Virus record (IMG/VR): IMGVR_UViG_3300025009_000017
Source: a virus
DNA: 55,350 nt
Direction: 5' to 3' (one strand)
The notes under the pieces: generated by a model
Databases searched by the model: none
The model's input: only the letters and a program-made list of their open reading frames with translations
Told to the model about the DNA's origin: nothing
In this document: positions 1 through 43,032 of the stretch, one piece after another
Numbering within the stretch: the stretch's first letter is position 1
Layout: every line of letters begins with the position of its first letter
Made by a program: the position numbers and the translations under genes

Positions 1-191
1 CCCCCAGTTGGGTCCTCAGTTGGGTCCACAGTTGGTTCCCCAGTTGGCTCCCCAGTTGGTCCCCCAGTTGGGTCCCCAGTTGGCTCCCCAGTTGGTTCCC
101 CAGTTGGCTCCCCAGTTGGTCCCTCAGTTGGGTCCACAGTTGGCTCCCCAGTTGGGTCCCCAGTTGGGTCCCCAGTTGGGTCCTCAAAATA
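1..191. repeat. 12-nt tandem repeat array (plus-strand unit CAGTTGGNTCCN), continuing the array at 55034..55350
   Basis: About 16 head-to-tail 12-mers can be read directly. Positions 1-64 are identical to 55287-55350, and positions 1-118 also match 55119-55236. Confidence 0.95.
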
Positions 192-391
192 CTATAAGCC
201 AAATTGCACATCATGGGAGAAGAAAAATACATTACATCTTTACATTTAATATTTGCAACGGCTAAATAATTTTTGATTGCTTCTGTAGATTTCTTCCGGT
301 CGACGGGTTCTGTGTTATAACCTATTGCATTCCATTTCTTGTTGAATTCAGGAATGCGTTTCTCTTGTGATTTAGTTAGTTTCTCTATCAT
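1..391 (-). CDS. Junction-spanning repeat protein, 5-prime segment: an N-terminal domain of about 70 aa followed by tetrapeptide repeats. The ORF leaves the window at position 1 and resumes at 55350.
   Basis: The minus frame with codon first bases = 1 mod 3 is open from the TAA at 445-443 down to position 1. It is absent from the ORF track because it has no stop inside the window. The ATG at 391-389 is preceded by AAAGGAAAAAGAGAA. Translation reads MIEKLTKSQEKRIPEFNKKWNAIGYNTEPVDRKKSTEAIKNYLAVANIKCKDVMYFSSPMMCNLAYSILR, then (G/R/W/E)(T/S/N/D)QL units. After removing the 64-nt overlap this frame is the same as that of 54445..54966. Confidence 0.6.
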   Translation of the reverse strand, partial: MIEKLTKSQEKRIPEFNKKWNAIGYNTEPVDRKKSTEAIKNYLAVANIKCKDVMYFSSPMMCNLAYSILRTQLGTQLGTQLGSQLWTQLRDQLGSQLGNQLGSQLGTQLGDQLGSQLGNQLWTQLRTQLG

Positions 392-656
392 TTCTCTTTT
401 TCCTTTCAAGTTTATTCCAGGCGAGCTTCGCCTCATATTTGGTTATTGCAAAGGGTCCCTGGTAGTCGCAGCTGTCGCAGTAATACTGCCAGCGGGGATT
501 CTCTATGGGAGCGTCGTTTCCCAGCACTATCCTCATGTTCTCGTCGCAGAGCCATATCCGGTGGCCTCCGCAGTCCGGGCAGGGCTTAAGCCTGTTGTAA
601 ACAATGGGGGTCCTGTTTGCTCCCCTGATGAACTTGGGGTTATTGATCTTTGGCAT
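372..656 (-). CDS. Lar-family restriction-alleviation-like zinc-ribbon protein (94 aa)
   Basis: ATG at 656-654 follows GGAGGTAACATA and forms a TAATG overlap with the upstream stop. LKPCPDCGG, YYCDSCDYQGP and the C-terminal EAKLAWNK fit the Lar-family pattern (CPxCGG ribbon plus A-x-x-WN). The track ORF 372..797 is an upstream extension. Confidence 0.6.
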   Translation of the reverse strand: MPKINNPKFIRGANRTPIVYNRLKPCPDCGGHRIWLCDENMRIVLGNDAPIENPRWQYYCDSCDYQGPFAITKYEAKLAWNKLERKKRNDRETN

Positions 657-2623: not shown

Positions 2624-3055
2624 CTATCCTTCGTTGTGGTTCGGATGGTCCGGGTCGGCAAGGGGCCGCTTAAGAAAGCCGTCCAGACTGCTCAGTATCC
2701 TTATCGCAGGACCTTGATTGAACGTATGCTGTGCGATTGTAACTGCCAGACTCGCCGAGTAGTAGATCAGGCAGGCTGCCACATCCTCGGACACCAGCTC
2801 CAGCACTTTGGCCTTCTTGTCCTGTGGATACTGCGCCCAGAAAGCCTTGATGATCTCGCTCTTGTCAATGGAGGTATCCTTCAGGGGCCCGTCTTCGTTC
2901 AGTTTGCGAATGATGTGGTGACCGGCGTACTTGTGGGCTTCCATGAAGAAAACCCCGATCACGTCTATCTCCTCGTAATTGCCCAGTGCGGTGGTGCTGT
3001 TCCCTTCCATCTTCTCCGTCAGCATATGCCGCCAGAGCTTTTTCTCGTTCTCCAT
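2624..3055 (-). CDS. Hypothetical protein (143 aa)
   Basis: ACCAAGGAGATTT precedes the ATG. Confidence 0.65.
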   Translation of the reverse strand: MENEKKLWRHMLTEKMEGNSTTALGNYEEIDVIGVFFMEAHKYAGHHIIRKLNEDGPLKDTSIDKSEIIKAFWAQYPQDKKAKVLELVSEDVAACLIYYSASLAVTIAQHTFNQGPAIRILSSLDGFLKRPLADPDHPNHNEG

Positions 3056-3256
3056 AAATCTCCTTGGTTAAAAATTATGTTGTTGTGTGGCTCTGCTCAG
3101 TGAGGACGATTTAACCGGACTTCTACCGGACCACACGGCCGTCCTTGCAGCACTTCTTTACAGCGGCTGGTTGTCGGGTTTTAACCACACCAGATCATTC
3201 TGGGCCCAGCCTCGCACTGGGACCGCTCGTCAACCCCCATCATAGGGGGGACGTTC

Positions 3257-3517
3257 TTAGTCCACCCGTTTCATCCGGTCAGTCGGGCACATGGCCTCGT
3301 CCGAGCTGTGCACTGCGAAAGGCTTTCCGCAGGTCTCGCAGAGGTGTCCCAGGCAGTAGCCTTCCACCGGGCCCGACCAGATGTAGTCCTTGTCTATCTT
3401 GGGAGGATCCGATGGCTTGAACACGCCGGTTCTGATCTCGATGACTTTCTTCTTGGCGAACTGGAAGGTGATTGGCGCTTCCACCACCGCTGCAGGTGAC
3501 TTGCTGTTCCAGCTCAT
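3257..3517 (-). CDS. Hypothetical Cys/His-containing protein (86 aa)
   Basis: ATGA overlap with the stop of 3514..3891. Reads MSWNSKSPAAV... and contains CLGHLCETCGKPF. Confidence 0.55.
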   Translation of the reverse strand: MSWNSKSPAAVVEAPITFQFAKKKVIEIRTGVFKPSDPPKIDKDYIWSGPVEGYCLGHLCETCGKPFAVHSSDEAMCPTDRMKRVD

Positions 3518-3891
3518 TTGCCCGTCCCGTCCGGCAGCTTTGAGCTGGCCTGCTTTGAGATGCCGGAGATGGCCGTCTGGCGCTGGTCTTCCTTGATGGC
3601 TTCGATCCGGTATTCCATCGCCACCCTGATGTACTCGTTCCACTTGGTAACCAGGCTCTGCTGAGCGGTCCTGATGCCGGTGGCGATCACCGAGAATTGC
3701 TGGTGCTCGTTCATCTCCATGAAGCTGTTGAAAACGTCCTCGTTCACTGTCAACTCCTCCAGCACGTTCTTCAGTTGAACTCCGGCCACGAAAGAATCAG
3801 GGCCAAAGATACCCTGGTCCTCTTTGTCCCCTTTAAACCCGATCTTCTGTGCGGTCTCTATCAGCTTAGCCTGCCGTTCTTCCTGAGTCAT
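3514..3891 (-). CDS. Hypothetical protein (125 aa)
   Basis: ATG at 3891 follows AAAGGAGTCAAACCA. The track ORF extends upstream across a terminator. Confidence 0.6.
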   Translation of the reverse strand: MTQEERQAKLIETAQKIGFKGDKEDQGIFGPDSFVAGVQLKNVLEELTVNEDVFNSFMEMNEHQQFSVIATGIRTAQQSLVTKWNEYIRVAMEYRIEAIKEDQRQTAISGISKQASSKLPDGTGK

Positions 3892-4699: not shown

Positions 4700-5998
4700 T
4701 CACCTCTTGGCAAACCACACTGACAGGGTCTCGTGCTGGCGTTCGTGGTCGCCCCTGTTGCCATACCTGACGTCCACGTCCAGGTTGAAGTCGCGGGTCT
4801 TCAGCACCGGCCCGTAGATGGCGGTGAACTCGGGGTTGATGCTGTGGGTCAGCACAAAGGTCGAGGTCCGGCCGGCTATCATGTCCACCAGCCTTTGGTG
4901 CAGACTGTGGTCGAAGGCGGCTTCATACTGCTCTGAGGCTTTGTGGCCGATGTAGGGCGGGTCGCAGAAGATGACCCGCGGTGCTTTCTGTTCCCGTTCG
5001 AACTTCTCGATAGCTTCGTCGAAGGATCCGTGCAGGATGGTGGTATCCTTGAAGGCTTCATGCCACGAGTCCAGGCTGTCGAGGGCATGGATGGCTTTCC
5101 TGACGGAGCCTTCTATCGTTTCCGCCTGCTTCGGGATATTGGCTCCCTTCCCCATGTAGGAGGCTTTCATGCGCATCACGTATGCTACTGCACGCCTGGC
5201 TATGCTCGGATCGTTCTCGGAGATGGCTTTAAGAGCCTGGAAGCCTTTCTGTGTCGGGTCTTTGGAGAAGATGGATATCAATTCCTGATGTATGTCATAC
5301 ATTTCCTGGGTCTTATTCTTCACGGCTTTCAGCAGGTTCACCATGTTGTCGTTGACGTCGTTGTAGTAGACCTTCCTGACATCAGAGCCATAGTCACCCA
5401 TCCTGAAAGTATAGCTGACAATGCCTGAGCCCCCGAAGGCGTCCAGGAATGCGTAAGGCTGTTTGATCCTGGTGTGCAACAGCGGCAGCAGATCCTGCTC
5501 GAACACTTCGATCCACTTTTTCTTCCCACCCAGATAGCTGACCAGTGACATGGGCTTCACCATCTTGCCGATCTCCGACTTCGCCGAGGCTTCGTCGGAC
5601 AAGTCCGGCTGAACCTCGTGAACCTCCATCTCCGCCAGCATCCCCAGTGGTGATGGCTCTATGGTCCGGCCGACTGGGAGAATATACAGGTGTCCGCCCT
5701 GGCCGTCCTGGAGAACCTCCTGCCAATCGGGTGAGAGCTCCATCTTCTCGACGTAGTTCTCAGGAGCCAGGAGTGCCATCTGATACTGTTTCTTTTCGAT
5801 AGAGGTTTCGGGAAGCTCGTGTATGCTGGCTGGAAACAGGTGCCTGAGAGCGTCTTCAGGCTTCAGTGTCACCCACACAGCCCGGGACTTCTCGCCGTCC
5901 AGAGCTGAGTCATCGAACCAGGATGAGCCCTGGAGCAGTGACAGCTCTTTCACGTTGGCCAGTGACGTGATGTACCCATGGGTAGAATAGCCTATCAT
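4700..5998 (-). CDS. N6-adenine DNA methyltransferase (Dam/D12-like) with an extra N-terminal region of about 150 aa
   Basis: AFGGSG (FxGxG, motif I) is followed about 155 aa later by CDPPY (motif IV). This motif order is that of alpha-group amino-methyltransferases. The N-terminal region has no motif I recognise. Confidence 0.75.
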   Translation of the reverse strand: MIGYSTHGYITSLANVKELSLLQGSSWFDDSALDGEKSRAVWVTLKPEDALRHLFPASIHELPETSIEKKQYQMALLAPENYVEKMELSPDWQEVLQDGQGGHLYILPVGRTIEPSPLGMLAEMEVHEVQPDLSDEASAKSEIGKMVKPMSLVSYLGGKKKWIEVFEQDLLPLLHTRIKQPYAFLDAFGGSGIVSYTFRMGDYGSDVRKVYYNDVNDNMVNLLKAVKNKTQEMYDIHQELISIFSKDPTQKGFQALKAISENDPSIARRAVAYVMRMKASYMGKGANIPKQAETIEGSVRKAIHALDSLDSWHEAFKDTTILHGSFDEAIEKFEREQKAPRVIFCDPPYIGHKASEQYEAAFDHSLHQRLVDMIAGRTSTFVLTHSINPEFTAIYGPVLKTRDFNLDVDVRYGNRGDHERQHETLSVWFAKR

Positions 5999-6350: not shown

Positions 6351-9245
6351 TCACTTAATGTTTGAACTGAGTTGTTCACGCCACACCAGCTTCTCCTCTT
6401 CTGAGAAACCTGGCGGGGACTTGCGTTCCAGGATGTTCTTGAGTCGGGTCTTGAACTGTTCGTCTGACTGAAGCATCTCGCGGCCGATGGGCAGCTTGAT
6501 GATGGGTTTGATCTTCAGCGGCTTCTCCTCCGGCTCGTCTTCCAGGCGTTCCTCCCAGAGCATCAGCTCGTTCTGGGCATCGTGAATGATCCTGGATCTC
6601 TCCTCGTCGGACTCCGCCTGAGCATAGTCGATCTCCATCTTCCTGGTGATCTCCCTGGGAGAGAGCCTCCGGGTGCGGGGTTCGGGCTTTTGCTCTGGGA
6701 TGTTCTGCTGGGGGTCGGGCATCACGGAATCTTCAGGACGTTCCTCCACTTCACGGATCTTCTGCATGATGTCGGCCATCTTGCGTAAGGCCGGCAGGTC
6801 GTAGTCCTGATCGGAGAGCTTGTCATAGATGATCTGGTTCTGTTCGTTCTGGCTGTAACCCTCCAGGGATTCCTTCTCGGCTTCTACGAACTCCGCCACA
6901 TGCCTCACCTGGTCCTGCAGCGCCATCTCAGCCATTCTGATCTCATCCTCCACGTCGTCGTTCATCATGGTGGTCAGGATGCTGACGTTGTGCTTGTTGA
7001 CTTCTAAAGGCGACAGGCTTCCGTCCGGCAGGGTGACCCGTTCTTTAAACAACAGCTGGTTGGATAGCCGGTTCAGGTTCTCCTCGTTGACCGGGAGCAT
7101 CACCCCGTCCTTGACGTATCCGCCCAGGTCCAGCTCTGTGATGTTGTTCTCGTCTAGGAGCATGAAGATCTGGAAGTCATGGAAGGTGGCCCTGCGGTTG
7201 CGTAACGAGTAGGTGTTCCTGACTACGACTGGATAATCCTTGCCCTGGCTGGTCTGAACCTTGAAAAAGAACGGGGGAAGCCCGTACTCCGGCCGTCGCA
7301 CTGTCAAGGGGCCCTGCATGGGTGTCCCGGTGTCGGGGTCGATCCAGGTGGCGACATGGGCGTACTTCTGGGTCCTGGCCACGTCGATCTTCCCGTCTGG
7401 GAGCCTGAGATTGTGCAGGTTCACGAAGTTCAGAATATGCTGCATCCACAAAAAGAGATAGTTGGGCCTGAACCGGCGTTCCTGGTGGTACTCCCACTTC
7501 TGGGTGGACTGGTTGAAGGACTTGGTCTGGTGGTGGTAGTAGTGACCGGGCTTCAGCACGTTCTCGATCAGCTTCTGCTTGTTGGTCTTCTTCAGCTCGG
7601 CAAAGAACGACTCCAGGGATATGATCTTCCCGTCTTGCACCAGGTTGGGGAAGGCGAACACGGACAGCAGGTAGGCATGGTCTTCCCAGGTGAACCTGTT
7701 GACGACTTCGGTGATTGGCTCCGCAGCGATGCCGGTGGCCGACTGGTCCACCAGGGCCTGGTGCTCGGACTTGTCCAGCTGGTGCTTCTTTAACCGGGTG
7801 TCAAGCATGGCCTTGGTGCGGTTGAAGGCTTCCTGACGCAGAACCACGTCGAACTTTCCGGTGCGGACCGCCCTGGTGAATACCTCCGTGACCACGTCCG
7901 GTGACGAAAGATTCTTTAACAGTTCCTCAAAAAAGGCCCGGTGGACGTCGGGATGCGGAAGCAGGAGATCTCCCACGCAGGCCAGGAGCTTCTTGAAGTC
8001 GGCCGGGGTTTCAGTAGGCAGCAGGGGCTCGTAAGCCTGAGCGATGGTCTGGCCCTGAGCTGACGGCTGGTAGCCCAGCATCATAGCGTTCAGCATGGTC
8101 CTGACAGCCACAAAGCAGGTTCTGTCCTCTGGTGTTCTCCGGTAGGGGATCCTGGTTCCCAGCACTTCCTGGAAGATGATCTGGCCCTCGGCCTCCCGGG
8201 ATACGTTGTAAACCCTGGGGTTGACCAGGAATGACCAGTCGAATGGTTCCTTCCGTCTGTCATCCATGGAGGCTGGTTTGGCCACAGCAGCCATCAGTGA
8301 CGCATACCTGACGGCAAATCTGACAGGGTCCGAGGCGAAGGTGCTGGAGATGGGCCGGTCAACCGGCTGAAGCCCGGTGATGGGGTCGGAGAACTTGGAG
8401 GACTTCTGACCCAAAGCCTGCTTGACGCACGCCTCGTGGACAGAGGTGGACTCAAACATGAAGAAGGTCAGGTCCTTGTAGAGCTCCGGAGCCAGTTTGG
8501 TGTGCAGGGGCCCTCCGTAGAGCCTGTCTACCCAGCCTGAGATGGCAGCGTCGATGTAGGCCAGGTGCCGGAAGATCTCCACGAACATCTGCAGGTTGGA
8601 CTGGATCCTTGAAGCCAGTGGGTTGCGGCCCCGGGCCGTGGGAGCCACCCCGCGGTCGATCAGGTCCACGATCTGGTAGCGGTCATCCAGGAAGTCCCGG
8701 ATCTCATAGACCAGAAGATCTATGGGCACGGGGTCCTGGAACGCCTTCAGGTCTTCCATCTGCTTCAGGTACTCGTCCCGGGTGAGGCGCGAGGCGAAGT
8801 AGTTCTGGACGATCTCCTCCATCTCGGGGGTCATGTAAAGCCAGTTCTCGGAGGGCATGAAACTGTAATGGAGAACTGACCGGACTATCTCCTGCTCCAG
8901 CTTCAGCTTCTCCATGGCTCCGGTGTTGGACATGGCAGCCAGGAAGCGGTCCGGCAGGGCCGGCATTTTTAACTGGGCGGGAGTGGCCGGGAGGGTGGTC
9001 TCCTGGGCGGGTTCCGGCCGGTCATCCAGCTCGGGATCGAACAGCCTGGAGACCTTCTCCGACTTGGCCGACCTGACCTGGAACCGCAACGGCATCAGCG
9101 CCCTGATCTCAGAGGCCAGGGTGTCCGTAAAGGCAAACAGGAGATCCCCCAGCTCCTCCACCGCCTGGATACGTTCGGCAGTGGAGGGGGCTGAGATGAA
9201 TCTCCGGTCGAGCTGAGTGACTTTTTGTTTCAGCTGCTGGATCAT
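6351..9245 (-). CDS. Large hypothetical protein (964 aa), function unknown
   Basis: Longest ORF in the window. The C-terminal third is acidic. I could not find Walker, polymerase, nuclease or portal-like motifs by eye. Confidence 0.8.
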   Translation of the reverse strand: MIQQLKQKVTQLDRRFISAPSTAERIQAVEELGDLLFAFTDTLASEIRALMPLRFQVRSAKSEKVSRLFDPELDDRPEPAQETTLPATPAQLKMPALPDRFLAAMSNTGAMEKLKLEQEIVRSVLHYSFMPSENWLYMTPEMEEIVQNYFASRLTRDEYLKQMEDLKAFQDPVPIDLLVYEIRDFLDDRYQIVDLIDRGVAPTARGRNPLASRIQSNLQMFVEIFRHLAYIDAAISGWVDRLYGGPLHTKLAPELYKDLTFFMFESTSVHEACVKQALGQKSSKFSDPITGLQPVDRPISSTFASDPVRFAVRYASLMAAVAKPASMDDRRKEPFDWSFLVNPRVYNVSREAEGQIIFQEVLGTRIPYRRTPEDRTCFVAVRTMLNAMMLGYQPSAQGQTIAQAYEPLLPTETPADFKKLLACVGDLLLPHPDVHRAFFEELLKNLSSPDVVTEVFTRAVRTGKFDVVLRQEAFNRTKAMLDTRLKKHQLDKSEHQALVDQSATGIAAEPITEVVNRFTWEDHAYLLSVFAFPNLVQDGKIISLESFFAELKKTNKQKLIENVLKPGHYYHHQTKSFNQSTQKWEYHQERRFRPNYLFLWMQHILNFVNLHNLRLPDGKIDVARTQKYAHVATWIDPDTGTPMQGPLTVRRPEYGLPPFFFKVQTSQGKDYPVVVRNTYSLRNRRATFHDFQIFMLLDENNITELDLGGYVKDGVMLPVNEENLNRLSNQLLFKERVTLPDGSLSPLEVNKHNVSILTTMMNDDVEDEIRMAEMALQDQVRHVAEFVEAEKESLEGYSQNEQNQIIYDKLSDQDYDLPALRKMADIMQKIREVEERPEDSVMPDPQQNIPEQKPEPRTRRLSPREITRKMEIDYAQAESDEERSRIIHDAQNELMLWEERLEDEPEEKPLKIKPIIKLPIGREMLQSDEQFKTRLKNILERKSPPGFSEEEKLVWREQLSSNIK

Positions 9246-9752
9246 TTATACTTCGGTTTCGGTCGGGTCGCTGGCCTCGACATTGTAGCCAGAGGCTATG
9301 ACGTCCCCGGGGTTGACTGTTTTCCCGGTGGCCTTGCTCAGACGGGTGGAATCCTCGTAAGTGGCGATCTTCAGTGCCACCCCGAAGTTCCGCTTGACTC
9401 CGCCGGGGGAGACCTTGGTGGGCTTGCTGGTGCCGGTGCGGTGGATGGTGAAATACAGGGGAGACCTGGCCGGGGCAGGCTCAAGCTCTGGCGCCCGCTT
9501 GACCACCCTGGCTCCGCCTGACGCCGGGAAGAAGACCAGCACGCTGCCGTTGGGGTCGGTCCATGCCTGACGGACCAGCTCCATCATCTCGTCCTGTCCG
9601 GTGGGCTGGAAAGAGACCGGAGGCCGGATGGCCCGGGGTGGCTTCAGACCTGCGGCCGCCAGCTTGTCCAGGGTGGCCTGATACTCGGCCATCAGCCTGT
9701 CAGCCTCCTCCTGGGAGATGGGCTGAGCCGGATTGACTAGTACTGCGTCCAT
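9246..9752 (-). CDS. Hypothetical protein (168 aa)
   Basis: Its stop abuts the ATG of the 964-aa gene (TAAATG). Confidence 0.7.
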   Translation of the reverse strand: MDAVLVNPAQPISQEEADRLMAEYQATLDKLAAAGLKPPRAIRPPVSFQPTGQDEMMELVRQAWTDPNGSVLVFFPASGGARVVKRAPELEPAPARSPLYFTIHRTGTSKPTKVSPGGVKRNFGVALKIATYEDSTRLSKATGKTVNPGDVIASGYNVEASDPTETEV

Positions 9753-9777
9753 GATATTGCTCCTTTTATTTTATAGA

Positions 9778-10569
9778 TTACATCTGGAAAAGGGGGTTGG
9801 CCAGGGCGTAGGCTGCATGGTCGATGTTGGAGCTCTTGATGATGCAGTTGCGGCAGATGGCCACTGAAGTAAAAAAGCTGGATACCAGTCCGGAACCGGT
9901 ACCATTCGGTTGGAACCCTCCGCAGAATATCTCGTCGCCTATTCCGGCAACGGCCCAGGGAATCACAGCAGAGGTGACAAAGGCCCCGACGCTCGAATCG
10001 TAGACTGTGAACTGGAGATCCTTCTGGTTGGCTCCATTGCGGACCATGTTCATCTTGATGATATTACTGTAGGCGTCGACGAAGTTGGTCACTGTGAGGA
10101 AGGATACGAATGGAGCGCCATTGAAGGAATACAACCATTCATAGGCCACTCCCGTGAAATTGACCTCGACATCAATCCAATTTAAGTATCCATTGGACCA
10201 GCTCCATGCTTCCATCACTCCTCCAATGCCCAGGGCTACCCCGCCGTTAAAACCGACAGCCCTGAGATCTACCAGCTGACTTAGGAAGTCCCGCCGGTCT
10301 TCTAAAGTGTTGGCGAAAGCGGCCTGCCAGGTGGGAGTAAACTCGGATATGACGGCCATGCCAGGGGCCCAGGGGGAACCACAGACCAAGGGAATGATCT
10401 GGTTCTGGAAGTAATCGAAGTGGGTGGTGATGGGAGTAGTGTATCCGTCCACGCCGTTCCAGGTGAAGAACCCCGCTGCGTTAAGGTCGGCCGCTGACGC
10501 CAGCACAGATGGAAACTGCTTGTCAGGCAGGGCTGGGGTGTCGAAGATGCGTTTTCTGAAGTGTCCCAT
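9778..10569 (-). CDS. Beta-rich hypothetical protein, possible receptor-binding or fibre-like protein (263 aa)
   Basis: The N-terminus MGHFRKRIFDT parallels MSNFKRRIFST of the neighbouring gene. The rest is Gly/aromatic-rich. Confidence 0.65.
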   Translation of the reverse strand: MGHFRKRIFDTPALPDKQFPSVLASAADLNAAGFFTWNGVDGYTTPITTHFDYFQNQIIPLVCGSPWAPGMAVISEFTPTWQAAFANTLEDRRDFLSQLVDLRAVGFNGGVALGIGGVMEAWSWSNGYLNWIDVEVNFTGVAYEWLYSFNGAPFVSFLTVTNFVDAYSNIIKMNMVRNGANQKDLQFTVYDSSVGAFVTSAVIPWAVAGIGDEIFCGGFQPNGTGSGLVSSFFTSVAICRNCIIKSSNIDHAAYALANPLFQM

Positions 10570-10605
10570 AATAGGTCTCCTAATAAAAGATTAAAAATAA
10601 GTGGT

Positions 10606-11361
10606 TTATGGAGTTGTGTTTGCACCCAGGGGAAGGTCCGTGTCGGCAACGGAGAATGAACGAATTGAGGACCAGTATCCGTCGGCAGAGTCGTATCCGC
10701 CGGCTTCTTCATCAAAGCCCCAGATTATCGGAGAGTCCCCAGCCAAAGCCCGGGTATCGTCGAAGGTATAGGTCCAGACCAATCCAGTGGTTCTGTCCCA
10801 ACCGCTGAAGACGTAGCGCTTGAGGTTGGCGTTTATCCTGGTGGAAGTGATCTTGATTTTCCCGGTGGAGATGTCCCTTGAGTTGAGGGGGGTGAAGGTG
10901 TGTAAAGTTGTTCCGCCTCCTTCTTCAACGTAAAGCCAGTTATTCCAGGCTGGTCCGGGAAGGCGATAGGTAGACGAGATGTGAAGCTGGATGCTTTTTG
11001 CATGAGTTATGGCGTCGACGGCGTAGAAGGTGTTGATGCCAATCCCATAGTTGATTCCCGGGACCATATTCCGCGCTCCCAAAGCCTGCCATTCGTACAC
11101 GCAGCAGGCGAAGTTGATTCGGTTGGTGTAATTGGTGATCTGATTGCTTTTCTCGCCTATATATCCACCTGCCATCATGTGAAACGCTCCATTGGCCAAA
11201 AGGCCGGCATAGGAGCAGGGATCCCTGAAGTCGATTGTCACTGGGTTATAGGAACGGAAACCAATGACGTCCAGATCGGTCACATCGGAGATCTCAGACA
11301 TGACGACGGACTTGTTGCAGATATATTCAGTAGAGAATATGCGCCTTTTGAAGTTTGACAT
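10606..11361 (-). CDS. Beta-rich hypothetical protein, possible receptor-binding or fibre-like protein (251 aa)
   Basis: Shares its N-terminal 11-mer with 9778..10569. GGAGATCACCC precedes the ATG. Confidence 0.65.
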   Translation of the reverse strand: MSNFKRRIFSTEYICNKSVVMSEISDVTDLDVIGFRSYNPVTIDFRDPCSYAGLLANGAFHMMAGGYIGEKSNQITNYTNRINFACCVYEWQALGARNMVPGINYGIGINTFYAVDAITHAKSIQLHISSTYRLPGPAWNNWLYVEEGGGTTLHTFTPLNSRDISTGKIKITSTRINANLKRYVFSGWDRTTGLVWTYTFDDTRALAGDSPIIWGFDEEAGGYDSADGYWSSIRSFSVADTDLPLGANTTP

Positions 11362-17347: not shown

Positions 17348-18511
17348 TTACCTGAAGTGAATAATTCCTATGGCCAGGTCGTCCGTGGCCGGAGAGGTGT
17401 TCTGTCCTATGATGCCATCGGATATCGGGTGGCCCACTTCCCGGTCGTGAACGGGAACGCCCACCAGGGTGTAGCAGTCGGCCAGGGCGTTCGTGGCGGC
17501 TGAAAGAGCAAGCACCCGGTCGCCGTTTATCACTGTTGCAGTCGGGGCGTCGATCACGGCCACATACCCGCACCCGCTGACCGTGCACCAGTACCAGTCC
17601 TGGCTGGCTACCGAGACGTCAAAGACAGTTCCTATGGGCATAAGGTCGCCGGCAGTGGCGTAGGTGGTTTTCTTATAGGACCCGGTGGATCCCTCAACGA
17701 TCCATCCGCGATACATGGTAACACCGGAGCCATTGTAAAGGCGGACGTCAACACCGCCGAGAGAATTCAGGCGGACGGAGTCGGTGGAAATCTGTTGGGT
17801 GGCTTTAAGTGAGTCGCCTTTATACATTTTCGAGCCACCATTTGACAGCCATCCACAAGTAGTAGTGCCCGTAACGCTTCCAAGTGTCCATCCGGTTCCG
17901 GTGGTAGATGAAGTAAATCCTATTTGGCTTAACGTTGCATTGTTCGTGTAAGAGCTGCTTCCAACCCGAATATTTCCCATTATTGCCAATATCGAGGCAC
18001 CAGCATCGTAAATACTCCGAGTACCGAACACAACTGGCTCAGTAGCTGTCGCTGCAAAGGTGTCCGGCCCTGCAGTCGTGGTGATCCGGGCTGGCCGGAG
18101 GATATTGCTGAAAGTCGGGGCGGCAGCCACGCCGTTTCCCTGAAGGTAGTAGTAGGCGGCCGGGAGCGCCAACTCCTGCATCACGCCAGATCCATTGGTG
18201 TAAAAGGTCTTCCAGTTCCCGCCTGTCAGCCAGGTGGAGGGCACTGTGCCACTCCAGGCAGTCCAGGCTGTTCCGTTCCAGTAGGCCATCCGGCTCACCT
18301 CACCCTTGCCCACTGAGAGCTGGGTGACCAGGCCATACCCGGCCAGTGTCCAGGGCTTCCAGGTCAGGCTGGCCACTTCCCACACCGCCATCTTGCCGAC
18401 ATTGCCCTTGCCCACGTCCAGGGGACCGCCGTGTACTATCTTGGCCAGACCGCCCAGGGCCATCAGCACCAGGATGGTGCTTATGATCGCTTTCCATTTG
18501 TCAGATATCAT
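17348..18511 (-). CDS. N-terminally membrane-anchored beta-rich protein, possible spike or receptor-binding protein (387 aa)
   Basis: Begins MISDKWKAIISTILVLMALGGLAKI. Followed by a Gly/Thr/Ser/Trp-rich body whose central part (about 17700-18060) is AT-richer. Confidence 0.6.
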   Translation of the reverse strand: MISDKWKAIISTILVLMALGGLAKIVHGGPLDVGKGNVGKMAVWEVASLTWKPWTLAGYGLVTQLSVGKGEVSRMAYWNGTAWTAWSGTVPSTWLTGGNWKTFYTNGSGVMQELALPAAYYYLQGNGVAAAPTFSNILRPARITTTAGPDTFAATATEPVVFGTRSIYDAGASILAIMGNIRVGSSSYTNNATLSQIGFTSSTTGTGWTLGSVTGTTTCGWLSNGGSKMYKGDSLKATQQISTDSVRLNSLGGVDVRLYNGSGVTMYRGWIVEGSTGSYKKTTYATAGDLMPIGTVFDVSVASQDWYWCTVSGCGYVAVIDAPTATVINGDRVLALSAATNALADCYTLVGVPVHDREVGHPISDGIIGQNTSPATDDLAIGIIHFR

Positions 18512-18597
18512 TTTCTTCTCCCAAAGCGGCCAGCAGGGGCTTACCAGGAAAAAGGGGTGAAGCCAAAAACCCGGCAGAGGCCCCACGCTGGCGAAGG

Positions 18598-19071
18598 TTA
18601 AAACATTATTATTATCGTTATCACGGCCACCACCGCCAGTAGTGATTCCCAGAGGGCGGTCTCGTAGAGGTTCAGCATCCGTGGCTCCCAGTGGTTCAGC
18701 CACACGGCCGGGATGTAAAACGGCGACCCGGGGTGGCAGGGGAAGATTGGAAGACCAAATATTGCCTTTATCACGTCGTCCACGTCCATCGCTATGCCTA
18801 TCAAACCAAACCACATCTGCTGGTAGGCTCCCAGTTCCGTGAAGGCAGAGTAGTACAGGAACATGGCGGGTATAAGCATCAGGAACAGTTTCAGTTTCTT
18901 GAGGATCTGGCTGGTCCGGGTGTTGCCCCAGTCGTAGAACTCATTGAACAGCAGGTCGGCCGGGATATGCGTCAGGAAAGCAGCGATGGCGCCGGCCACA
19001 GGAGATCCAGATATTTTCCAGGCCACAGTCCCCGCTGTCATGCTTGTTGCGAAGTGGCCTATCGGCGTCAT
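18598..19071 (-). CDS. Multi-pass membrane protein (157 aa)
   Basis: Four to five hydrophobic segments. His/Asp residues near the N-terminus (IGH..., THIPAD) faintly resemble membrane-bound hydrolases of the YdjM type. This is a weak resemblance. Confidence 0.6.
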   Translation of the reverse strand: MTPIGHFATSMTAGTVAWKISGSPVAGAIAAFLTHIPADLLFNEFYDWGNTRTSQILKKLKLFLMLIPAMFLYYSAFTELGAYQQMWFGLIGIAMDVDDVIKAIFGLPIFPCHPGSPFYIPAVWLNHWEPRMLNLYETALWESLLAVVAVITIIIMF

Positions 19072-24873: not shown

Positions 24874-26055
24874 TTACCGCAGTTCGGGGTTCTCGGTCAG
24901 GTCGTAGTCTCCGCCCACCAGGTTGTCGGTCATGGTGTCGTTGCCTTCGACGTATTCCCTGTCCTCGTTCTGGTCATAGGCGGAAACCGGGCTGTCTATG
25001 ACGTAACGCTCTGAGCCGTAAGCCTGCACGCCGGGGATGTTCTCGGAAGCCTGGACGCTGCGGTCGATGACCACATCGTCGCTGGCACCGATCATCTGGC
25101 CCACGTTGATGACGGGCTTGCCCTGGTATTCGATGCCGCCCAGGACATACAGGGCAGAACCGGCTACCATGCCGTCGGCCACCCTGTCAACCCACTCCTC
25201 ACGGGGCAGGAATGAACGGGCCATGCCCGGGACCACGACGCCGGTGATGGCGGCAGTGGCCAGTCTCTGCCAGATGGAGAGCTTGTCGCCGGCCTGTTTC
25301 TTGAACACGGACTGCATGATCTTCTCGACCACCAGGTCGTTCCCGTACTTGGCAGCGGCGACTCCGGCCACCACGCCCAGTGCGGTCTGTCCGCCGGAAA
25401 CCACGTTGCCCATGATGGCTTCCTTGGTGAAGTTGAACGAGGGATTGCCGAAGGCCGGGTTCATGGCGACCATGCCGCCGACTCTGCGCCGGTTGGCATA
25501 TTTACCGACCTGGGATCCGATGGTCGGCAGGGCCAGCCGTGAGGTGATGTAATCCTGGCGCTTGGAAGCCGCTTTGCTCTTCATGCCCAGCTTGGACTTC
25601 AGGGCATTCAGCTGACCGCGGAGATAGGCTTCGGTCTGCAACCGCTCACGCACCTTGCTGGTGATGTGCGGCACTCCGCCTTTTCCGGCTCTGCGGGCAT
25701 ACGCCTGCTCTAAGCCTTCGAAGCCGGTGCTCTGGATCTCGCTCCTGCGGGCCTTGGCCCGGGCGGAAGCTTTCTGGCGCAGGGCCAGGACCTGCTCGGT
25801 GGACAGGGTGACGGGGACCCGCATCCCGGACTTCTTGTGCTTCTTGTAGACGACCTTCGGGCCTGCGGTATGGATCCCCAGGTATGAACGGACGGAGGCG
25901 GCAGTCAGCTGGTATTTCTTCTCACCGGCAGCCCGCAGCTTCTCGTTTATCATCCTGGCGATCACATCGGGGGAGTGGCCTTGCTTGGCCAGCTGGTCAA
26001 TCGCCTTGACCGGACGCACTGCCGGGTTCTTGGCGATTTCGGCTATGGTAGCCAT
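24874..26055 (-). CDS. Structural protein with a basic N-terminal half and a hydrophobic/Gly-rich C-terminal half (393 aa)
   Basis: Lys/Arg-rich first 200 aa, then GGQTALGVVAGVAAA and TAAITGVVVPGMA segments. Confidence 0.65.
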   Translation of the reverse strand: MATIAEIAKNPAVRPVKAIDQLAKQGHSPDVIARMINEKLRAAGEKKYQLTAASVRSYLGIHTAGPKVVYKKHKKSGMRVPVTLSTEQVLALRQKASARAKARRSEIQSTGFEGLEQAYARRAGKGGVPHITSKVRERLQTEAYLRGQLNALKSKLGMKSKAASKRQDYITSRLALPTIGSQVGKYANRRRVGGMVAMNPAFGNPSFNFTKEAIMGNVVSGGQTALGVVAGVAAAKYGNDLVVEKIMQSVFKKQAGDKLSIWQRLATAAITGVVVPGMARSFLPREEWVDRVADGMVAGSALYVLGGIEYQGKPVINVGQMIGASDDVVIDRSVQASENIPGVQAYGSERYVIDSPVSAYDQNEDREYVEGNDTMTDNLVGGDYDLTENPELR

Positions 26056-27724: not shown

Positions 27725-29059
27725 TTACTTTGGACCCGTGATTCCTTTCATCAGGTTCCCCGCCAGCCCCCCGCCCTGGAGGGCACTCATGCTCTGTTGT
27801 ATCCAGCCCTTCTTGTATGCGATCCATCCTATCAAGAATACGCCAGCACCTACGGCGAAAGGGGCCCAAGGAATGTCCATGCTCTTTTTGTTGTCCACCC
27901 CTTTGTCCTGGACTTCCTTCAGGTTCTTCTGAACCTGTTCTTCCTGCTTGATGATGGCGTCCCGTTCGACTGCGGTGATCTTGCCGGCCTTGAAATCCTC
28001 CCAGGCTTTTCTCTGGCGCTCCGCAGACTCGTCGATGCCGGCGATGGTCTTTGAGTTGATCTTGTAGTTGTTCTGACGGGTGATCACCTCGGCTCCGGCG
28101 GCCAACGCTTTGCTCATGGTGAATACCAGACCAACCACTATGATGCCAACCATTATCACGCCCACTGGAACTCCCACCTGGTCTGCCGGTATCTTGTCGC
28201 CCGAGATCAGTGTGGCCGTAACCCTGGTCCCGCTTGCAGAGGTCAGTGAACCTTTTCCTTCGGTCTGGGCCAGACGGACCGCCGTGTTCAATGCGTCGTA
28301 GAATGAATTGTCCTTTGAGGCAAACCCTTTGATGGTCGGCTCCATTGCGTAGAGCTGGTCCATCAGTTTCTTTGAGGCGGAGCTGTATCCGTCGAGGATG
28401 ATCTTCACATCGGGGTCTGTCACCTGTTTGCCCTGGGATAATGCCAGCGTCCTGAAGTTGCGAAGCTGCCGGTCGCAGTATTGTTTCTGTATCAGGGTGT
28501 TGGCCCAGACGGAACAGAAGTCGTTGATGTTCTTCTCGGCTTGGGCAATCTGGGCCGGAGTATAAATGACAGCCTTCGCCACCTGTGTCGTTTTCGCTAT
28601 GAACTTGGCCGGGTCGAAGATCTTTCCGAAGGTGATCTTGGCGTCTTCTTTAATGTTCTCCAGGGTTCCCAGATAAGATGTCGCAACGTCGAGTTTTGAC
28701 TTCAGAGCCTTCATCAGCACCGGGTCGGTCAGGGCCTTGTCCCAGTTGGCGTCAACGTAATCCAGGATATTCAGGGCTGATCGTTTCTGCTGGTCGTTTA
28801 TCTTCGCGGACTTCTTGATCGGGTCATAGGCCGCCTGGAACTCCGGGTGCTTTGGGTTGTAGTCTCCGATGGCTTTCTCACCTGCCCCCACTCCGCTGAT
28901 GCTGGTGTCGGGCTCCGGCGCTGTGGTCGGGATCTGACGGACTGCGTAGATGATGTCGTCCCCGGGCTTCGGAAGCTTGGCGATGTCCATCTGGGTCATC
29001 TTTTCCCTCTCGGGTCCGCTTCTCAGCGGATCACCCTGACCGATCTGTGCATAGCTCAT
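27725..29059 (-). CDS. Membrane-spanning structural protein (444 aa)
   Basis: Central TM segment VGVIMVGIIVVGLVFTM and C-terminal WAPFAVGAGVFLIGWIAY. The N-terminus MSYAQIGQG resembles MSYAIQGQVG of 29645..31069. Confidence 0.7.
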   Translation of the reverse strand: MSYAQIGQGDPLRSGPEREKMTQMDIAKLPKPGDDIIYAVRQIPTTAPEPDTSISGVGAGEKAIGDYNPKHPEFQAAYDPIKKSAKINDQQKRSALNILDYVDANWDKALTDPVLMKALKSKLDVATSYLGTLENIKEDAKITFGKIFDPAKFIAKTTQVAKAVIYTPAQIAQAEKNINDFCSVWANTLIQKQYCDRQLRNFRTLALSQGKQVTDPDVKIILDGYSSASKKLMDQLYAMEPTIKGFASKDNSFYDALNTAVRLAQTEGKGSLTSASGTRVTATLISGDKIPADQVGVPVGVIMVGIIVVGLVFTMSKALAAGAEVITRQNNYKINSKTIAGIDESAERQRKAWEDFKAGKITAVERDAIIKQEEQVQKNLKEVQDKGVDNKKSMDIPWAPFAVGAGVFLIGWIAYKKGWIQQSMSALQGGGLAGNLMKGITGPK

Positions 29060-29644: not shown

Positions 29645-31069
29645 TTATTTATTGCGTTTGGCCATCATCTTCTTGACGAGGAACCCTCCGCCGAGGATCA
29701 GGGCGCTCCCTCCGAGTATCACTCCGACCTTTCCGGTGGTGGTTCCCCAGACCTTCTGCACCATGCTGTCGGAAACCTTGACCACCACACCGCCACGGAC
29801 TGCCACCGGAACCTGCGCCCTCACGACCTCGCCCTTCTTCACTGTGTCGCCCGGCTTCACGTCCCGGGTCACATCGGCTCCGACATCGTAACCCACCACG
29901 AACGGGGTGTTGGCCGGGACCGGAGTGCCTTCGGTGATGGTTGGGTACTGGGCGGTCTTGCTGAGGTCAACTGCGGCCTGGGCTTCGGTCTTGCCGGTCT
30001 GGTTCTGGGCAGTGGTGATGGAAGTGCCGAGGTTCTGGCTCTTGGGGTCTGAAGAATTGGTCAGGGCTGTGGCTGCGACAGCCAGATCCTGCTGGGTGGG
30101 TTTGGCCTTCAGCTTCTCGGCTTCAAGTTTGATGAACGACTCGTTCACCTTGGCCATCCGTTCCGCCTGAATCAGAAATATATTCGTGCTCCCATCGGCA
30201 GTTTTCTCACCGGCTATTGATGCGGCATTTGCTTCCATGCCGAGAGCTGCCTGGGAATTGGCTGTCCCTTGAGTTTTGTTCTTGGATCCATCGTTGATTA
30301 CCTTCGGATAATAAACGCCCATGATCCACTGATTGAACGGGTCCAATGCCCACCGGAGCATATTGTAGTCGTTCAGACCGGGGTTCCAGTACTTGACGCT
30401 GGTATCGTTGGCCCACCTTCCGGCAGGGCTGGCATGAAAAGCATCCACTATTTTCTGCATTTCAGCCTGAGCAGTTTTGAAGGTCTCTATGACAGCTTCC
30501 CGCTGTTTCATCTTTTCCTTCATCCCGCCGCCGAACAGATTCTTGATGGCGTTCTGTATTGAGACCGCTTTGCCAACCAAGCCGGTCGGGTCTACCGCAG
30601 CTGCGGTCTGGACCACCGGGTCATCCGCCAGGGCTCCCACCTGGGCATCCGGGTTGGCCAGTTTATAAGCGATGATCACCTTCATGGCCGCATGGCGCTG
30701 CATGGCGTTCATCCTGGGCAGTTCTCGTATCAACTGCTGGATGGCCTCCGCTGTCAGGGCGGTGCCGGTAACCACTCCGTCAGTTACCACAACCTTGACG
30801 CCGTCCTTCTGCATCTTCTGCGTGGTGATCTTCCGGCCTTCAGGTCTTCCGCCGGTTGAGGATCCACGGCCGCCCTTCTGCTCACCCGGATAACCCACCT
30901 GGGCATCCATGCCCTCGTCCATGGTGTTGTAATTCTGGCTCTGGCTGGTGCCGTAGGCCATCCGGTTCCCGGTGGACGACATCGTAAGACTGCCCTTGGC
31001 TCCCACCTGACGTGAAACCTGCCGTCTCCGGCGGGCGACTCCGACCTGGCCTTGAATTGCGTAAGACAT
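29645..31069 (-). CDS. Large structural protein with a C-terminal TM anchor and a barrel-sandwich-like GDTVKKGEVV segment (474 aa)
   Basis: The C-terminus VGVILGGSALILGGGFLV is hydrophobic. VKPGDTVKKGEVVRAQ resembles lipoyl/hybrid-barrel motifs. Confidence 0.7.
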   Translation of the reverse strand: MSYAIQGQVGVARRRRQVSRQVGAKGSLTMSSTGNRMAYGTSQSQNYNTMDEGMDAQVGYPGEQKGGRGSSTGGRPEGRKITTQKMQKDGVKVVVTDGVVTGTALTAEAIQQLIRELPRMNAMQRHAAMKVIIAYKLANPDAQVGALADDPVVQTAAAVDPTGLVGKAVSIQNAIKNLFGGGMKEKMKQREAVIETFKTAQAEMQKIVDAFHASPAGRWANDTSVKYWNPGLNDYNMLRWALDPFNQWIMGVYYPKVINDGSKNKTQGTANSQAALGMEANAASIAGEKTADGSTNIFLIQAERMAKVNESFIKLEAEKLKAKPTQQDLAVAATALTNSSDPKSQNLGTSITTAQNQTGKTEAQAAVDLSKTAQYPTITEGTPVPANTPFVVGYDVGADVTRDVKPGDTVKKGEVVRAQVPVAVRGGVVVKVSDSMVQKVWGTTTGKVGVILGGSALILGGGFLVKKMMAKRNK

Positions 31070-31093: not shown

Positions 31094-31708
31094 TTATCTG
31101 ATTTCCACCCCGTCAACCCTGGCGTAGTACCTGGTCATTGGGACCACAGTCTTGCGCTGTTCTCCGAACTTCAGAGTGGTTGACGATGTTTCCATGGGGA
31201 CCCATCCGTCAGAGGTTCTCATCACCGCGGGATTCTTTCTCACGAAGTCTTCCACCTGGCTGTCAACCTTCAGCTCTGGATAAACGTGGTTGATGGTTTT
31301 CTGGTTGGGTGCATACTGCGACTGCCACGCTCCCACCGCCCGGGCGGTGTATCTTCGGTTAAAGCAAAGAGCCAGCATCATTGTGCATTTTCCGTCACAG
31401 TCTTCCATCGGCTGAACCTTGGAGCCTTCGTAAAGATAATCCCATATCTGCCTGGCCATCTCCTTCGGCCAGATTATCATTTCGGCAGTGATCGGGTCGG
31501 GGTGATATCTTATCACCTTCTGGCAGACGTAAAACAATTTCTCAACAGGAGTGGATCCTTCCAGCTTCGGATCCTGGATTATTCTCTGGGCCAGCATATG
31601 CACCTGGGGAGACCAGCTGCCCTCAACTGCCAGCTCCACCACCCGGATTATCGTCGGGTCCTGGATTGTCTTGAGGTTCTGGGTTACCCTGCCCGCCATC
31701 TGGTCCAT
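31094..31708 (-). CDS. Transglutaminase-like (Cys-His-Asp) domain protein (204 aa)
   Basis: DCDGKCTMMLALCFNRRYTARAVG (Cys motif) is followed by INHVYPE and SDGWVPMETS, consistent with the transglutaminase-core pattern. AAGGAGCGGAGCAAC precedes the ATG. Confidence 0.5.
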   Translation of the reverse strand: MDQMAGRVTQNLKTIQDPTIIRVVELAVEGSWSPQVHMLAQRIIQDPKLEGSTPVEKLFYVCQKVIRYHPDPITAEMIIWPKEMARQIWDYLYEGSKVQPMEDCDGKCTMMLALCFNRRYTARAVGAWQSQYAPNQKTINHVYPELKVDSQVEDFVRKNPAVMRTSDGWVPMETSSTTLKFGEQRKTVVPMTRYYARVDGVEIR

Positions 31709-32753
31709 GTTGCTCCGCTCCTTGCTGTGGTTTCTGGTCTTCGTCGGCCGTGTAGATCTCGTTCAGGGCTTCCTGCTGTCCTTCGATCCGGCCCCGGTCC
31801 ACCGAGGTCTTGATAATCATTTCCATCTGCTTCTTGGCCACGATGTAGAGGCCCCGGTCTTCCAGCGCTTTGGCCAGCTGCGGCACGATGGGTTCCAACA
31901 GCATTCCCAGATCAAAGCCGAATATGTTCAGGCTGTTCTTCTCGCCGATGATGTCCTTGATGGCTTCCACCAGCGTCATGGCATTCCCGCCTTCGGGGTC
32001 TATCTGCGAAACTCCCTGGACCTCCTGAACCCTTTTCGCTACCAGGGCCTGCTTCGCCTCGAACGCCATGTCCTCCCGTTCCCACCGGCGGGCCCGCTCC
32101 GCTCTCCTGGTCTCCAGCTCATCGCGCTTCTCCTCGATCTGGAACTGGGTGGCCGCCATCATCGCTTCCTTCTGGACTGACAGGGCGTTCTTCAGGACCT
32201 CCTGCATCTGTTCGGCCTGGGACTGCTTCTGGTTCGCCGTCTGGTCCAGCATCCGGAGAAACATCTTTTCCATCAGGGTTCCGCCCTGGAGCTCGCCTTC
32301 GCTCTCGTCTCCGAAGATGGACTTGGCCGGCCGGTTCACTTTTTTCTCCAGCTCCTCCAGCTTGGCCATCACCGACTCCAGCACTGCTGTCACCTCGCTG
32401 CCGATCCCCTGGTCGTTTTCTTCCTCGGTGCCTTCCTCCTGGTGGGCTGCCGCTTCCAGCGGGTGCGGGGTCTGACGCATCACGTCGACTGTCTTCTGGG
32501 TTATGACCACCCCGGTCTCTTTGTTCTTGGCGACCAAATAAAAACGGCCCACGCCAAACTGCTTTTCTAAATCCTCCGAGTCAAGGTAGCCTTCAATGGG
32601 CTGACCTTGCGTAAGATTCTCTCGCTGTTTGTTTGGGCCGATGGAGTAAACATAGATCGCTATTTTCTCCTGTGGCACTTCCCGGACCATGCGGTCATCG
32701 AAGGCAGTGCCTAAAAGTTCTCTCGCTGAGACCTTTCTCTCTTCCAGGTCCAT
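31623..32753 (-). CDS. Coiled-coil-rich protein, possible scaffold (376 aa), first gene of the late unit
   Basis: AAGGGGGTGAGAGT precedes the ATG. Long Glu/Gln/Lys-rich helical middle. The tail overlaps the next gene by 86 nt. Confidence 0.65.
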   Translation of the reverse strand: MDLEERKVSARELLGTAFDDRMVREVPQEKIAIYVYSIGPNKQRENLTQGQPIEGYLDSEDLEKQFGVGRFYLVAKNKETGVVITQKTVDVMRQTPHPLEAAAHQEEGTEEENDQGIGSEVTAVLESVMAKLEELEKKVNRPAKSIFGDESEGELQGGTLMEKMFLRMLDQTANQKQSQAEQMQEVLKNALSVQKEAMMAATQFQIEEKRDELETRRAERARRWEREDMAFEAKQALVAKRVQEVQGVSQIDPEGGNAMTLVEAIKDIIGEKNSLNIFGFDLGMLLEPIVPQLAKALEDRGLYIVAKKQMEMIIKTSVDRGRIEGQQEALNEIYTADEDQKPQQGAEQHGPDGGQGNPEPQDNPGPDDNPGGGAGS

Positions 32754-32959: not shown

Positions 32960-33331
32960 TCAGTCGGATGCGTTAAAAATTCCCCCCCTGATTCCTCGCT
33001 TAACGCTGAATTCACTACTCTTACTGGCTTTTTTGGCTTCTTTCTCCTCGCTTTCTTTTTGTTTGCGCTTTCTGTCGGCCTCGGCTATTTCACGCTTGAC
33101 GACAATGTCCCGCTGAATGAGATCTTCTTTCGCGCATTCCACACAACTGAAAAAACCAAACAGTGTGGGTGTCGCCATAATTCCGTGTTTACTGCACTTC
33201 GCATCAGGTTCCTCCGAAAGAAACAATCCGTTTTGAATAAAATGCCTGGCGATGAGCTCCCGTACCTGCCGGTAGTTTGGATCGTTTTTTCGAGGAACCT
33301 TCACGGCACTGTTAAAGTTTAAGCGCTTCAC
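32960..33331 (-). CDS. Hypothetical protein with a Cys cluster and a Lys/Glu-rich tail (123 aa)
   Basis: GTG start follows CCGGAGGTGAAGC. Lies in the AT-rich module. Confidence 0.6.
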   Translation of the reverse strand: MKRLNFNSAVKVPRKNDPNYRQVRELIARHFIQNGLFLSEEPDAKCSKHGIMATPTLFGFFSCVECAKEDLIQRDIVVKREIAEADRKRKQKESEEKEAKKASKSSEFSVKRGIRGGIFNASD

Positions 33332-43018: not shown

Positions 43019-43032
43019 AGTTCTCCTTTATG

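Follow-up and report, generated by a model that had tools for sequence, protein, structure and literature searches.

A DUF6745-family gene with an in-frame 12-nucleotide repeat array spans the ends of a probably circular viral contig

The IMG/VR virus record IMGVR_UViG_3300025009_000017 is a stretch of DNA of 55,350 nucleotides (nt), which was analysed as a whole and is referred to here as the window. Both of its ends lie in a tandem array of 12-nt units, and a single gene runs across them. This is one intact gene on the minus strand, from ATG 391 to a stop codon at 54445, and it encodes a three-part protein of the DUF6745 family (Pfam PF20530). The window very probably represents a circular or circularly permuted element of 55,286 bp that was opened by the assembler inside the tandem array; this confidence covers the circle jointly with the intact DUF6745 gene across the ends and with the explanation as a whole. 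The apparent split of the gene is a consequence of the assembler's choice of the cut point on the circle and of nothing else.

Results and Discussion

One gene across the contig ends

A comparison of the window ends revealed an exact terminal overlap of 64 nt (positions 1-64 are identical to 55287-55350), and no further suffix/prefix overlap within 5% mismatch was present when lengths of 12-400 nt were scanned. Both ends fall in a period-12 tandem array, which Tandem Repeats Finder (TRF) placed at 2-183 and 55062-55350. On the minus strand, one frame follows a TAA at 443-445 and is then open as far as position 1. The same frame is open from 55350 to the stop codon at 54445-54447, running through the ATG 54966 at which the program-made list of open reading frames (ORFs) starts a gene. 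If the 64-nt duplicate is counted once, the ORF from ATG 391 comprises 1,233 nt and encodes 410 amino acids (aa). A preliminary description of the window had proposed this frame, open to position 1, with a start at ATG 391, an AAAGGA resembling a Shine-Dalgarno (SD) sequence and a 20-nt overlap with a Lar-like gene, as well as the in-frame joining after collapse of the 64 nt and the total length of 1,233 nt; all these features were reproduced.

The SD-like AAAGGA (401-406, minus strand), read from the sequence, lies 9 nt upstream of the start codon. The start codon (ATG 389-391) and the N-terminal segment (aa 1-69, MIEKLTKSQEKRIP...SPMMCNLAYSIL) occupy 185-391 on the minus strand, and both the start residue and the motif found there are shared by the homologues. 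The first part of the array, with x-x-Q-L units 1 to about 15.3, covers 1-184 (minus strand; TRF, unit parse and translation). Its second part covers 55063-55350 (minus strand; TRF, overlap, unit parse and translation) with 55287-55350 counted once, and ends with ...RNQL (aa 205). The C-terminal part (aa 206-410), which carries the DUF6745 domain according to Pfam PF20530, occupies 54445-55062 on the minus strand together with the stop codon at 54445-54447. The Lar-like ORF ends with a TAA at 372-374, which results in the 20-nt overlap with the joined gene.

The listed ATG 54966 corresponds to the internal Met238 of the joined protein, and the ORF called there is 173 aa long. The sole AGGA upstream of this ATG is 12 nt away, i.e., there is no well-spaced SD sequence, as had been remarked beforehand. 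Upstream of Met238 are the near-invariant Y223, a conserved W/FY.F motif and a helix (213-230) modelled with a predicted local distance difference test score (pLDDT) above 90. As the conserved Y223 and the confidently predicted helix precede Met238, the 173-aa ORF truncates the domain and is not the correct call. The PF20530 match begins at profile position 34-35, which is residue 246-247 and only nine residues beyond Met238, so that the rest of the profile reaches upstream of it. The annotation is thus corrected to one 410-aa gene in place of three spurious or truncated ORFs.

It could be supposed that the junction is an assembly artefact, that the ends come from different molecules or from two DUF6745 gene copies, and that the 410-aa protein is chimeric. 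Indeed, the contig terminates in a repeat, the 64-nt overlap recurs within an array holding an exact 176-nt duplicate, and many related contigs likewise break in the array. However, the ends divide a single family architecture precisely between them, with the N-terminal part on one and the C-terminal part on the other, both halves share strand and frame, and the unit variants match across the overlap. Furthermore, neither the array nor either half is present a second time in the window, and the low guanine-plus-cytosine (GC) content of the two unique parts is equally unusual. We therefore regard such an artefact as improbable, and the joined gene provides independent support for the contig as a closed circle.

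The protein is a member of the DUF6745 family

The joined protein matches PF20530 with 44.0 bits (E 2e-11) and its C-terminal part alone with 46.3 bits (E 4e-12), the cut-off being 27. The joined protein has 446 relatives, the best of which cover 97-100% of the query as single chains of 320-530 aa. The order of parts in the relatives is the same, i.e., about 70 N-terminal aa, an array of x-x-Q-L, x-x-Q-V or x-x-Q-I units, and the DUF6745 region. Their N-terminal segment starts with M-I-x-K-L-T-x-x-Q-E, and their C-terminal region ends with ...WRN...P..LT. In an alignment of 77 sequences, P59 and G298 are invariant, and I2, L5, T6, Q9, S58, Y223, H278, D289, N323, R327, G335, P375 and S376 are conserved in at least 90% of the sequences; all these residues are present in the window protein, which is ~43-55% identical to its nearest relatives. 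The window gene thus adds a member to a family that is known but has not been studied.

The N-terminal 69 aa alone, compared with 1.84 billion representatives, matched 284 proteins, almost always at residues 1-70. The DUF6745 C-terminal part is present in 76 of the 145 new representatives found by this N-terminal search, and the remaining 69, of which 13 end within an array, are with few exceptions fragments of 59-223 aa. The N- and C-terminal segments thus co-occur in single chains, and therefore the two halves are one protein. The earlier proposal of a single junction-spanning gene of ~410 codons in the x-x-Q-L frame is borne out by these searches with the halves and with the joined protein, as the homologues are contiguous single proteins with the same three parts and the N-terminal query retrieves DUF6745 proteins.

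The profile of PHROG 31813 is matched colinearly, with the C-terminal part at profile positions 192-308 and the N-terminal part at 23-87 (E 0.16, not significant alone). A scan of the joined protein against NCBIfam gave glycine-zipper matches only, all of them sub-threshold, the PADLOC scan gave no match for the DUF6745 gene, and a sequence search of the PDB with the joined protein returned only low-complexity noise. A literature search found no paper mentioning DUF6745.

The translated frame

A unit-by-unit parse resolved the array of the window into 34 units of exactly 12 nt each, in perfect register and all ending with CAACTG (Q-L). Variation is confined to nucleotides 1, 2, 4 and 5 of the unit, that is, to the first two bases of codons 1 and 2. 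G, R, W or E is found at residue 1 and T, S, N or D at residue 2, and every polymorphism is non-synonymous; the parse thereby reproduced what had been noticed about the invariant Q-L and the two variable positions. Within the window array all six frames are open. Openness there is therefore uninformative, and the informative parts are the unique flanks (69 and 205 codons) and the homology.

The frame was tested at the DNA level with 31 related loci (608 units for base counts and 26 non-redundant arrays for stops). In these loci, an array uses either CAA or CAG for Gln, while CTT, CTA, CTC or TTG serve for Leu (CTG in the window) and GTT, GTG, GTC or GTA for Val. Inside any single array, the Gln and Leu/Val codons are almost uniform. 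The conservation of the motif across loci by synonymous change points to selection in the Q-L frame, and the homogenization of the core within arrays to concerted evolution. The numbers of non-majority bases at unit positions 1-12 are 324, 137, 33, 23, 85, 4, 0, 0, 4, 16, 0 and 8, i.e., diversity is concentrated at positions one and two of codon 1 and at position two of codon 2. Stops interrupt each of the other five frames in 5-13 of the 26 arrays, and the peptides of those frames vary by locus. Note that the arrays were picked by their Q-L frame, so that the openness of this frame (0 stops) is by construction; what is informative is that the alternatives are closed and non-conserved. Judged by this comparison of related loci, the x-x-Q-L frame is the translated frame; its predicted product of ~45 kDa would contain peptides such as TQLGDQLGSQLESQLR.

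Two other frames have been offered for the array. The first is the PTG(E/D) frame, represented by a GTG-started ORF on the minus strand (55031-55315), whose translation would leave the N-terminal 69 aa and the 173-aa ORF as separate genes. This frame is open across the window array, and its composition of Pro, Thr, Gly and acidic residues is linker-like. However, it contains a stop three codons before the array and another one nine codons after it and has no ATG, in agreement with the preliminary description, in which it was said to be closed near the array. Moreover, stops interrupt the equivalent (+2) frame in 5 of the 26 related arrays, the loci do not share a conserved peptide in that frame, and the flanking halves sit together in single proteins throughout the family. 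The probability of this alternative is negligible. A Pro/Thr-rich linker or collagen-like protein with PTG[E/D] repeats was likewise rejected as a candidate, having no ATG, close flanking stops and a frame that is not conserved in relatives.

The second is the plus-strand ORF 8-265 with its GPQL/VPQL/APQL repeats. The core CAACTG differs little from its reverse complement (CAGTTG), and the plus strand consequently reads Gln-Leu as well. This near-palindrome accounts for the plausible look of the ORF, which is open as well; the symmetry is missing in relatives with other Leu/Val codons. The ORF has a TTG start inside the array and a tail of about 29 residues without repeats. The other long ORFs of the element lie almost without exception on the minus strand, and the reverse-strand frames are interrupted by stops in 8-13 of the 26 related arrays. 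That ORF 8-265 is a real gene can be given hardly any credence.

A diversity-generating retroelement target was also considered for the array and rejected: the array pattern was not found outside the window ends and there is no template copy, reverse transcriptase not having been searched for systematically.

The array as a length-variable module of the family

In the window, the array contains an exact internal duplicate of 176 nt whose copies are 168 nt (14 units) apart (55062-55237 equals 55230-55286 plus 1-119). Short-read assembly therefore cannot fix the number of units, and 34 is the assembled value; a single copy of the duplicated block would leave 20 units instead. With a unit of 12 nt, the reading frame is safe whatever the copy number.

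Among the 120 listed relatives, Q-[L/V/I] arrays of 5-55 units are present in about 85, and the median across all 120 is 13.5 units. About 66-100 aa of N-terminal flank precede the array. At least six four-residue units are present at the same site in about 100 of the 120, some of the arrays being built on other motifs, namely x-x-K-V, x-x-S-V, x-x-N-L, x-x-T-V, x-x-S-L and x-x-A-V (e.g., in the proteins P0023, P0044, P0046, P0054, P0088 and P0100 and the loci L043, L051 and L054). What stays constant among the arrays is that the fourth residue is hydrophobic and the second is small or polar. Calculated over 103 arrays, residue 1 is G (24%), R (23%), W (14%), E (9%), D (8%) or Y (6%), residue 2 is S (39%), D (18%), N (16%) or A (10%), residue 3 is Q (74%), N (10%), S (10%) or K (4%), and residue 4 is L (66%), V (29%) or I (5%). 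Two relatives (P0095 and P0117) have no array, and their N- and C-terminal parts are joined directly. Four relatives from different datasets (P0002, P0005, P0033 and P0035) have 36, 18, 9 and 8 units, respectively, between flanks of 76 aa and 204 aa that are 100% identical. A structural period was sought in the autocorrelation of residue 1 over the 103 arrays; the signal, weakly depleted at lag 1 and weakly enriched at lags 5 and 9, is confounded by higher-order DNA duplications and was not used.

The array is an ancestral, length-variable and family-wide feature rather than an insertion that split the gene. The preliminary description had left a choice between a variable spacer and a conserved protein split by an expanding insertion. 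The former was upheld and the latter was not, in view of an unbroken gene and of an array at the same position in about 100 of the 120 relatives. We suggest that the array grows and shrinks through slipped-strand mispairing or unequal recombination between the 12-nt units and higher-order blocks; as 12 is divisible by three, the changes in array length are always in frame. Concerted evolution would keep the core identical, and selection would hold Q-[L/V/I] while tolerating or favouring diversity at residues 1 and 2.

A related alternative is that the gene is a relic, that is, a compact DUF6745 gene disabled by a runaway expansion of microsatellite type. The two array-less relatives with directly joined parts fit such an origin, as does the fact that all variation within the window array is non-synonymous. 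However, the frame is intact across 410 codons, the at least six units at the same site in about 100 of the 120 listed relatives rise to as many as 55, and the persistence of Q-[L/V/I] despite synonymous codon differences among loci indicates that the array itself is under purifying selection. A disabled gene is accordingly highly improbable, even more so than a chimeric junction.

Predicted structure

The structure of the joined protein was predicted with AlphaFold2 using the 77-sequence alignment. The model has confident flanks (pLDDT 89-98 for residues 1-70 and 88-98 for residues 211-400) and a low-confidence helical array, drawn as two long helices (59-133 and 142-205) with pLDDT 44-73. 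The array-less P0095 is predicted to fold as one unit (mean pLDDT 93, predicted template modelling score (pTM) 0.82), and we infer from this pTM that the N- and C-terminal parts contact each other and fold together as one compact domain. The site that carries the array in other relatives lies in the P0095 model between helix 59-66 and helix 76-90. According to the models, the array would be inserted into a surface loop that connects two helices, leaving and returning at the same point. Such an arrangement requires a hairpin-like arm whatever its secondary structure. The array would then project as a two-stranded arm, which AlphaFold draws, with low confidence, as an antiparallel helical hairpin. 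In an antiparallel hairpin, an added four-residue unit would keep the same residue classes facing each other, and this would explain the tolerance of any copy number.

The array as an assembly breakpoint

The full-length alignment retrieved 80 viral loci, about 15 of which start within the array at a contig end; of the 59 loci retrieved with the N-terminal alignment, 13 reach a contig end within a few hundred bases. Translation showed that most of these contig-end loci are cut in the array itself. Chance alone would, roughly estimated, place a contig end inside an array of ~400 nt in only 1-2% of contigs of ~40 kb. The IMG/VR contigs that start in the array are L016, L021, L032, L033, L038, L042, L043, L047, L048, L051, L054, L058, L061, L067 and L073; those that end in it are L111, L118, L122, L128-L130, L144, L145, L154, L155 and L162-L164. 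The array is a recurrent assembly breakpoint, and the window shows the same behaviour with overlapping ends in addition.

About one in five related viral contigs is thus cut at the array, and gene callers then output fragments. The 'circularity' concluded from a terminal overlap may rest on repeat sequence in such cases. If the array were a fast-evolving module maintained by selection, a doubtful idea taken up below, it would in addition be a systematic breakpoint of metagenomic virus assemblies, producing split genes and repeat-based 'circular' ends in public viral catalogues.

Genomic context and origin

The neighbourhood of the DUF6745 gene in the window comprises an ORF with weak similarity to Lar, a small protein of the radical-SAM type, a D12 adenine methyltransferase and an AAA ATPase. 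The Lar-like ORF (372-656, minus strand) matches PF14354 (Lar_restr_allev) over profile positions 2-56 of 58 with 18.7 bits (E 0.0022), below the cut-off of 28.6, and is a plausible candidate for the Lar family. Directly upstream of it, a 198-aa radical-SAM protein is encoded at 656-1252 on the minus strand (Pfam Radical_SAM, E 1.7e-11). Its first ~90 residues match the prokaryotic viperin (pVip) models of PADLOC (E 3e-12); the pVip profiles are longer (257-262 positions). The AAA ATPase (506 aa, 51552-53072, minus strand) matches phrog_8638 (E 4e-88) and the PADLOC models of IetA (E 1.4e-16), the ATPase component of the Ietaeris (IetAS) defence system.

Among the related loci, L001 possesses an AcrVA2-like gene (2665-3705) three genes upstream of the homologue, and L002 has ERF, SSB, DnaB-like, HNH and pentapeptide-repeat genes nearby. 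A pentapeptide-repeat protein and an IS605-type pair of TnpA and OrfB (TnpB-like) are located in L002 at 4758-5441 and 9451-11019. Clustering of all ORFs of 83 loci by blastp revealed no neighbour family common to more than eight loci. The sole recurrent 'neighbour' proved to be an ORF antisense to the conserved C-terminal region and was discarded as an artefact. Judging from these gene neighbourhoods, the DUF6745 protein probably functions independently of any dedicated partner inherited along with it.

The GC content is 32.5% and 39% in the two unique parts of the gene and 54% in the element, which places these parts among the lowest 0.5-1.5% of windows. This low GC content suggests horizontal acquisition, and the DUF6745 gene was probably acquired horizontally by the element. 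A single-protein scan of cellular genomes found no relative. A scan of the cellular collections with a tighter alignment gave 24 loci, all on contigs of metagenome-assembled genomes (MAGs); these are spread over many phyla, so that no host can be assigned. One GenBank phage record only was matched by tblastn.

The window had no match to GenBank phages by blastn, and a comparison by exact 43-mers did not find it in IMG/VR. The ORFs 6351-9245, 17348-18814, 24874-26055, 27725-29059, 29645-31069 and 31623-32753 (all on the minus strand; 964, 488, 393, 444, 474 and 376 aa, respectively) matched neither PHROG nor Pfam profiles. Three of the largest ORFs, tested by sequence against the PDB, gave no match, and capsid, portal and terminase were not recognized. 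With the largest ORFs unmatched and no GenBank phage found by blastn, the element may be either a phage or a plasmid.

Several further features of the element were observed. The ORF 33312-34157 (minus strand) matches phage replication-initiation PHROGs (E 2e-11), and within it, at 33718-33765, a 10-nt repeat (TTACCTTCCC) is present in 4.7 copies, among the lowest-GC stretches. These repeats could represent the iterons of an origin. Inside the ORF 37473-38150 (minus strand), a 48-nt sequence is perfectly duplicated in tandem (37980-38075; 2.0 copies, 100% identity). The lowest GC content of the element, 34.5% in windows of 600 nt compared with the mean of 54%, is found at 42900-43100.

Possible function and points against the explanation

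Our best guess, and the least certain part of the explanation, is that the DUF6745 protein could be a stand-alone cytoplasmic accessory protein of phage-like or mobile elements, in which the globular head does the work and the arm serves as a length-tunable spacer or interaction surface. A more far-reaching idea, which we consider doubtful, is that the array is a fast-evolving and selection-maintained module of a widespread phage or mobile-element accessory protein with a previously unseen fold. In this case the arm, tunable in length and surface, would function in the conflict between host and element, e.g. as an anti-defence decoy, a distance-setting spacer or a multivalent binding surface.

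A number of points weigh against the explanation as a whole. Both the closure of the circle and the count of 34 units depend on a 64-nt overlap that recurs inside the array. Translation of the Q-L frame in this element is deduced from comparative evidence only, and the length differences among the relatives with identical flanks could partly be due to assembly collapse. The helical-hairpin model is of low confidence, and the strict period of four residues does not match a heptad or canonical coiled-coil packing. In addition, Gly at residue 1 (24%) is unfavourable for helices, and a high content of Gly, Ser, Thr, Asn and Asp is common among the arrays. A Foldseek search of the PDB with both models gave no solved structural relative (best E 0.9 and 1.4). 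The globular part, predicted with high confidence and having no solved structural relative or literature, is therefore a tractable target for structural and functional work among phage accessory genes.

Comparison with known systems

The top match of the whole model in a library of predicted viral structures (Foldseek, E 9e-16) is the DUF6745 protein of Microcystis phage Ma-LMM01 (BFVD A0A7T8; PHROG 31813). The Pfam model PF20530 describes only the C-terminal ~200 aa, and the N-terminal segment and the tetrapeptide array are not part of it, whereas hundreds of metagenomic relatives possess the full three-part architecture of the window protein. A conserved N-terminal segment and a hypervariable in-frame 12-nt repeat are thus family features absent from Pfam's domain model.

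A literature search for tetrapeptide or tandem-repeat phage proteins yielded general analogies with variable-number tandem repeats (VNTRs) only. In E. coli tolA, an intragenic VNTR is reported to encode an extended region of the protein (PMC3477136). The likeness is in a short-unit repeat lying in frame within a coding region, in copy numbers that vary between near-identical genes, and in an elongated segment that changes its length with the frame kept. The differences are that another gene family is concerned here, with a 12-nt x-x-Q-L unit in the accessory context of phage-like or mobile elements. Unlike for tolA, the copy-number differences come here from metagenome assemblies and may include collapse.

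Pentapeptide-repeat proteins (PF00805) resemble the array as well. Both have long arrays of a very short unit in which one hydrophobic position is invariant and the others are polar or variable, and both are found in phage or mobile-element contexts; in L002, a pentapeptide-repeat protein is encoded two genes upstream of the homologue. In contrast to the beta-helix of these proteins, the array is predicted, with low confidence, to be helical. A pentapeptide repeat of the type A(D/N)LXX was rejected for the array itself, as the period is exactly four residues (12 nt) and the Pfam scan gave no Pentapeptide match at E <= 1.

Finally, the array resembles simple-sequence contingency loci in being a slippage-prone tandem repeat within a gene of an element engaged in conflict with its host. 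A phase-variable contingency locus was rejected, however, as all 34 units are 12 nt long and in register, a multiple of three. With a unit divisible by three, slippage alters only the length of the protein and does not switch the gene on and off.

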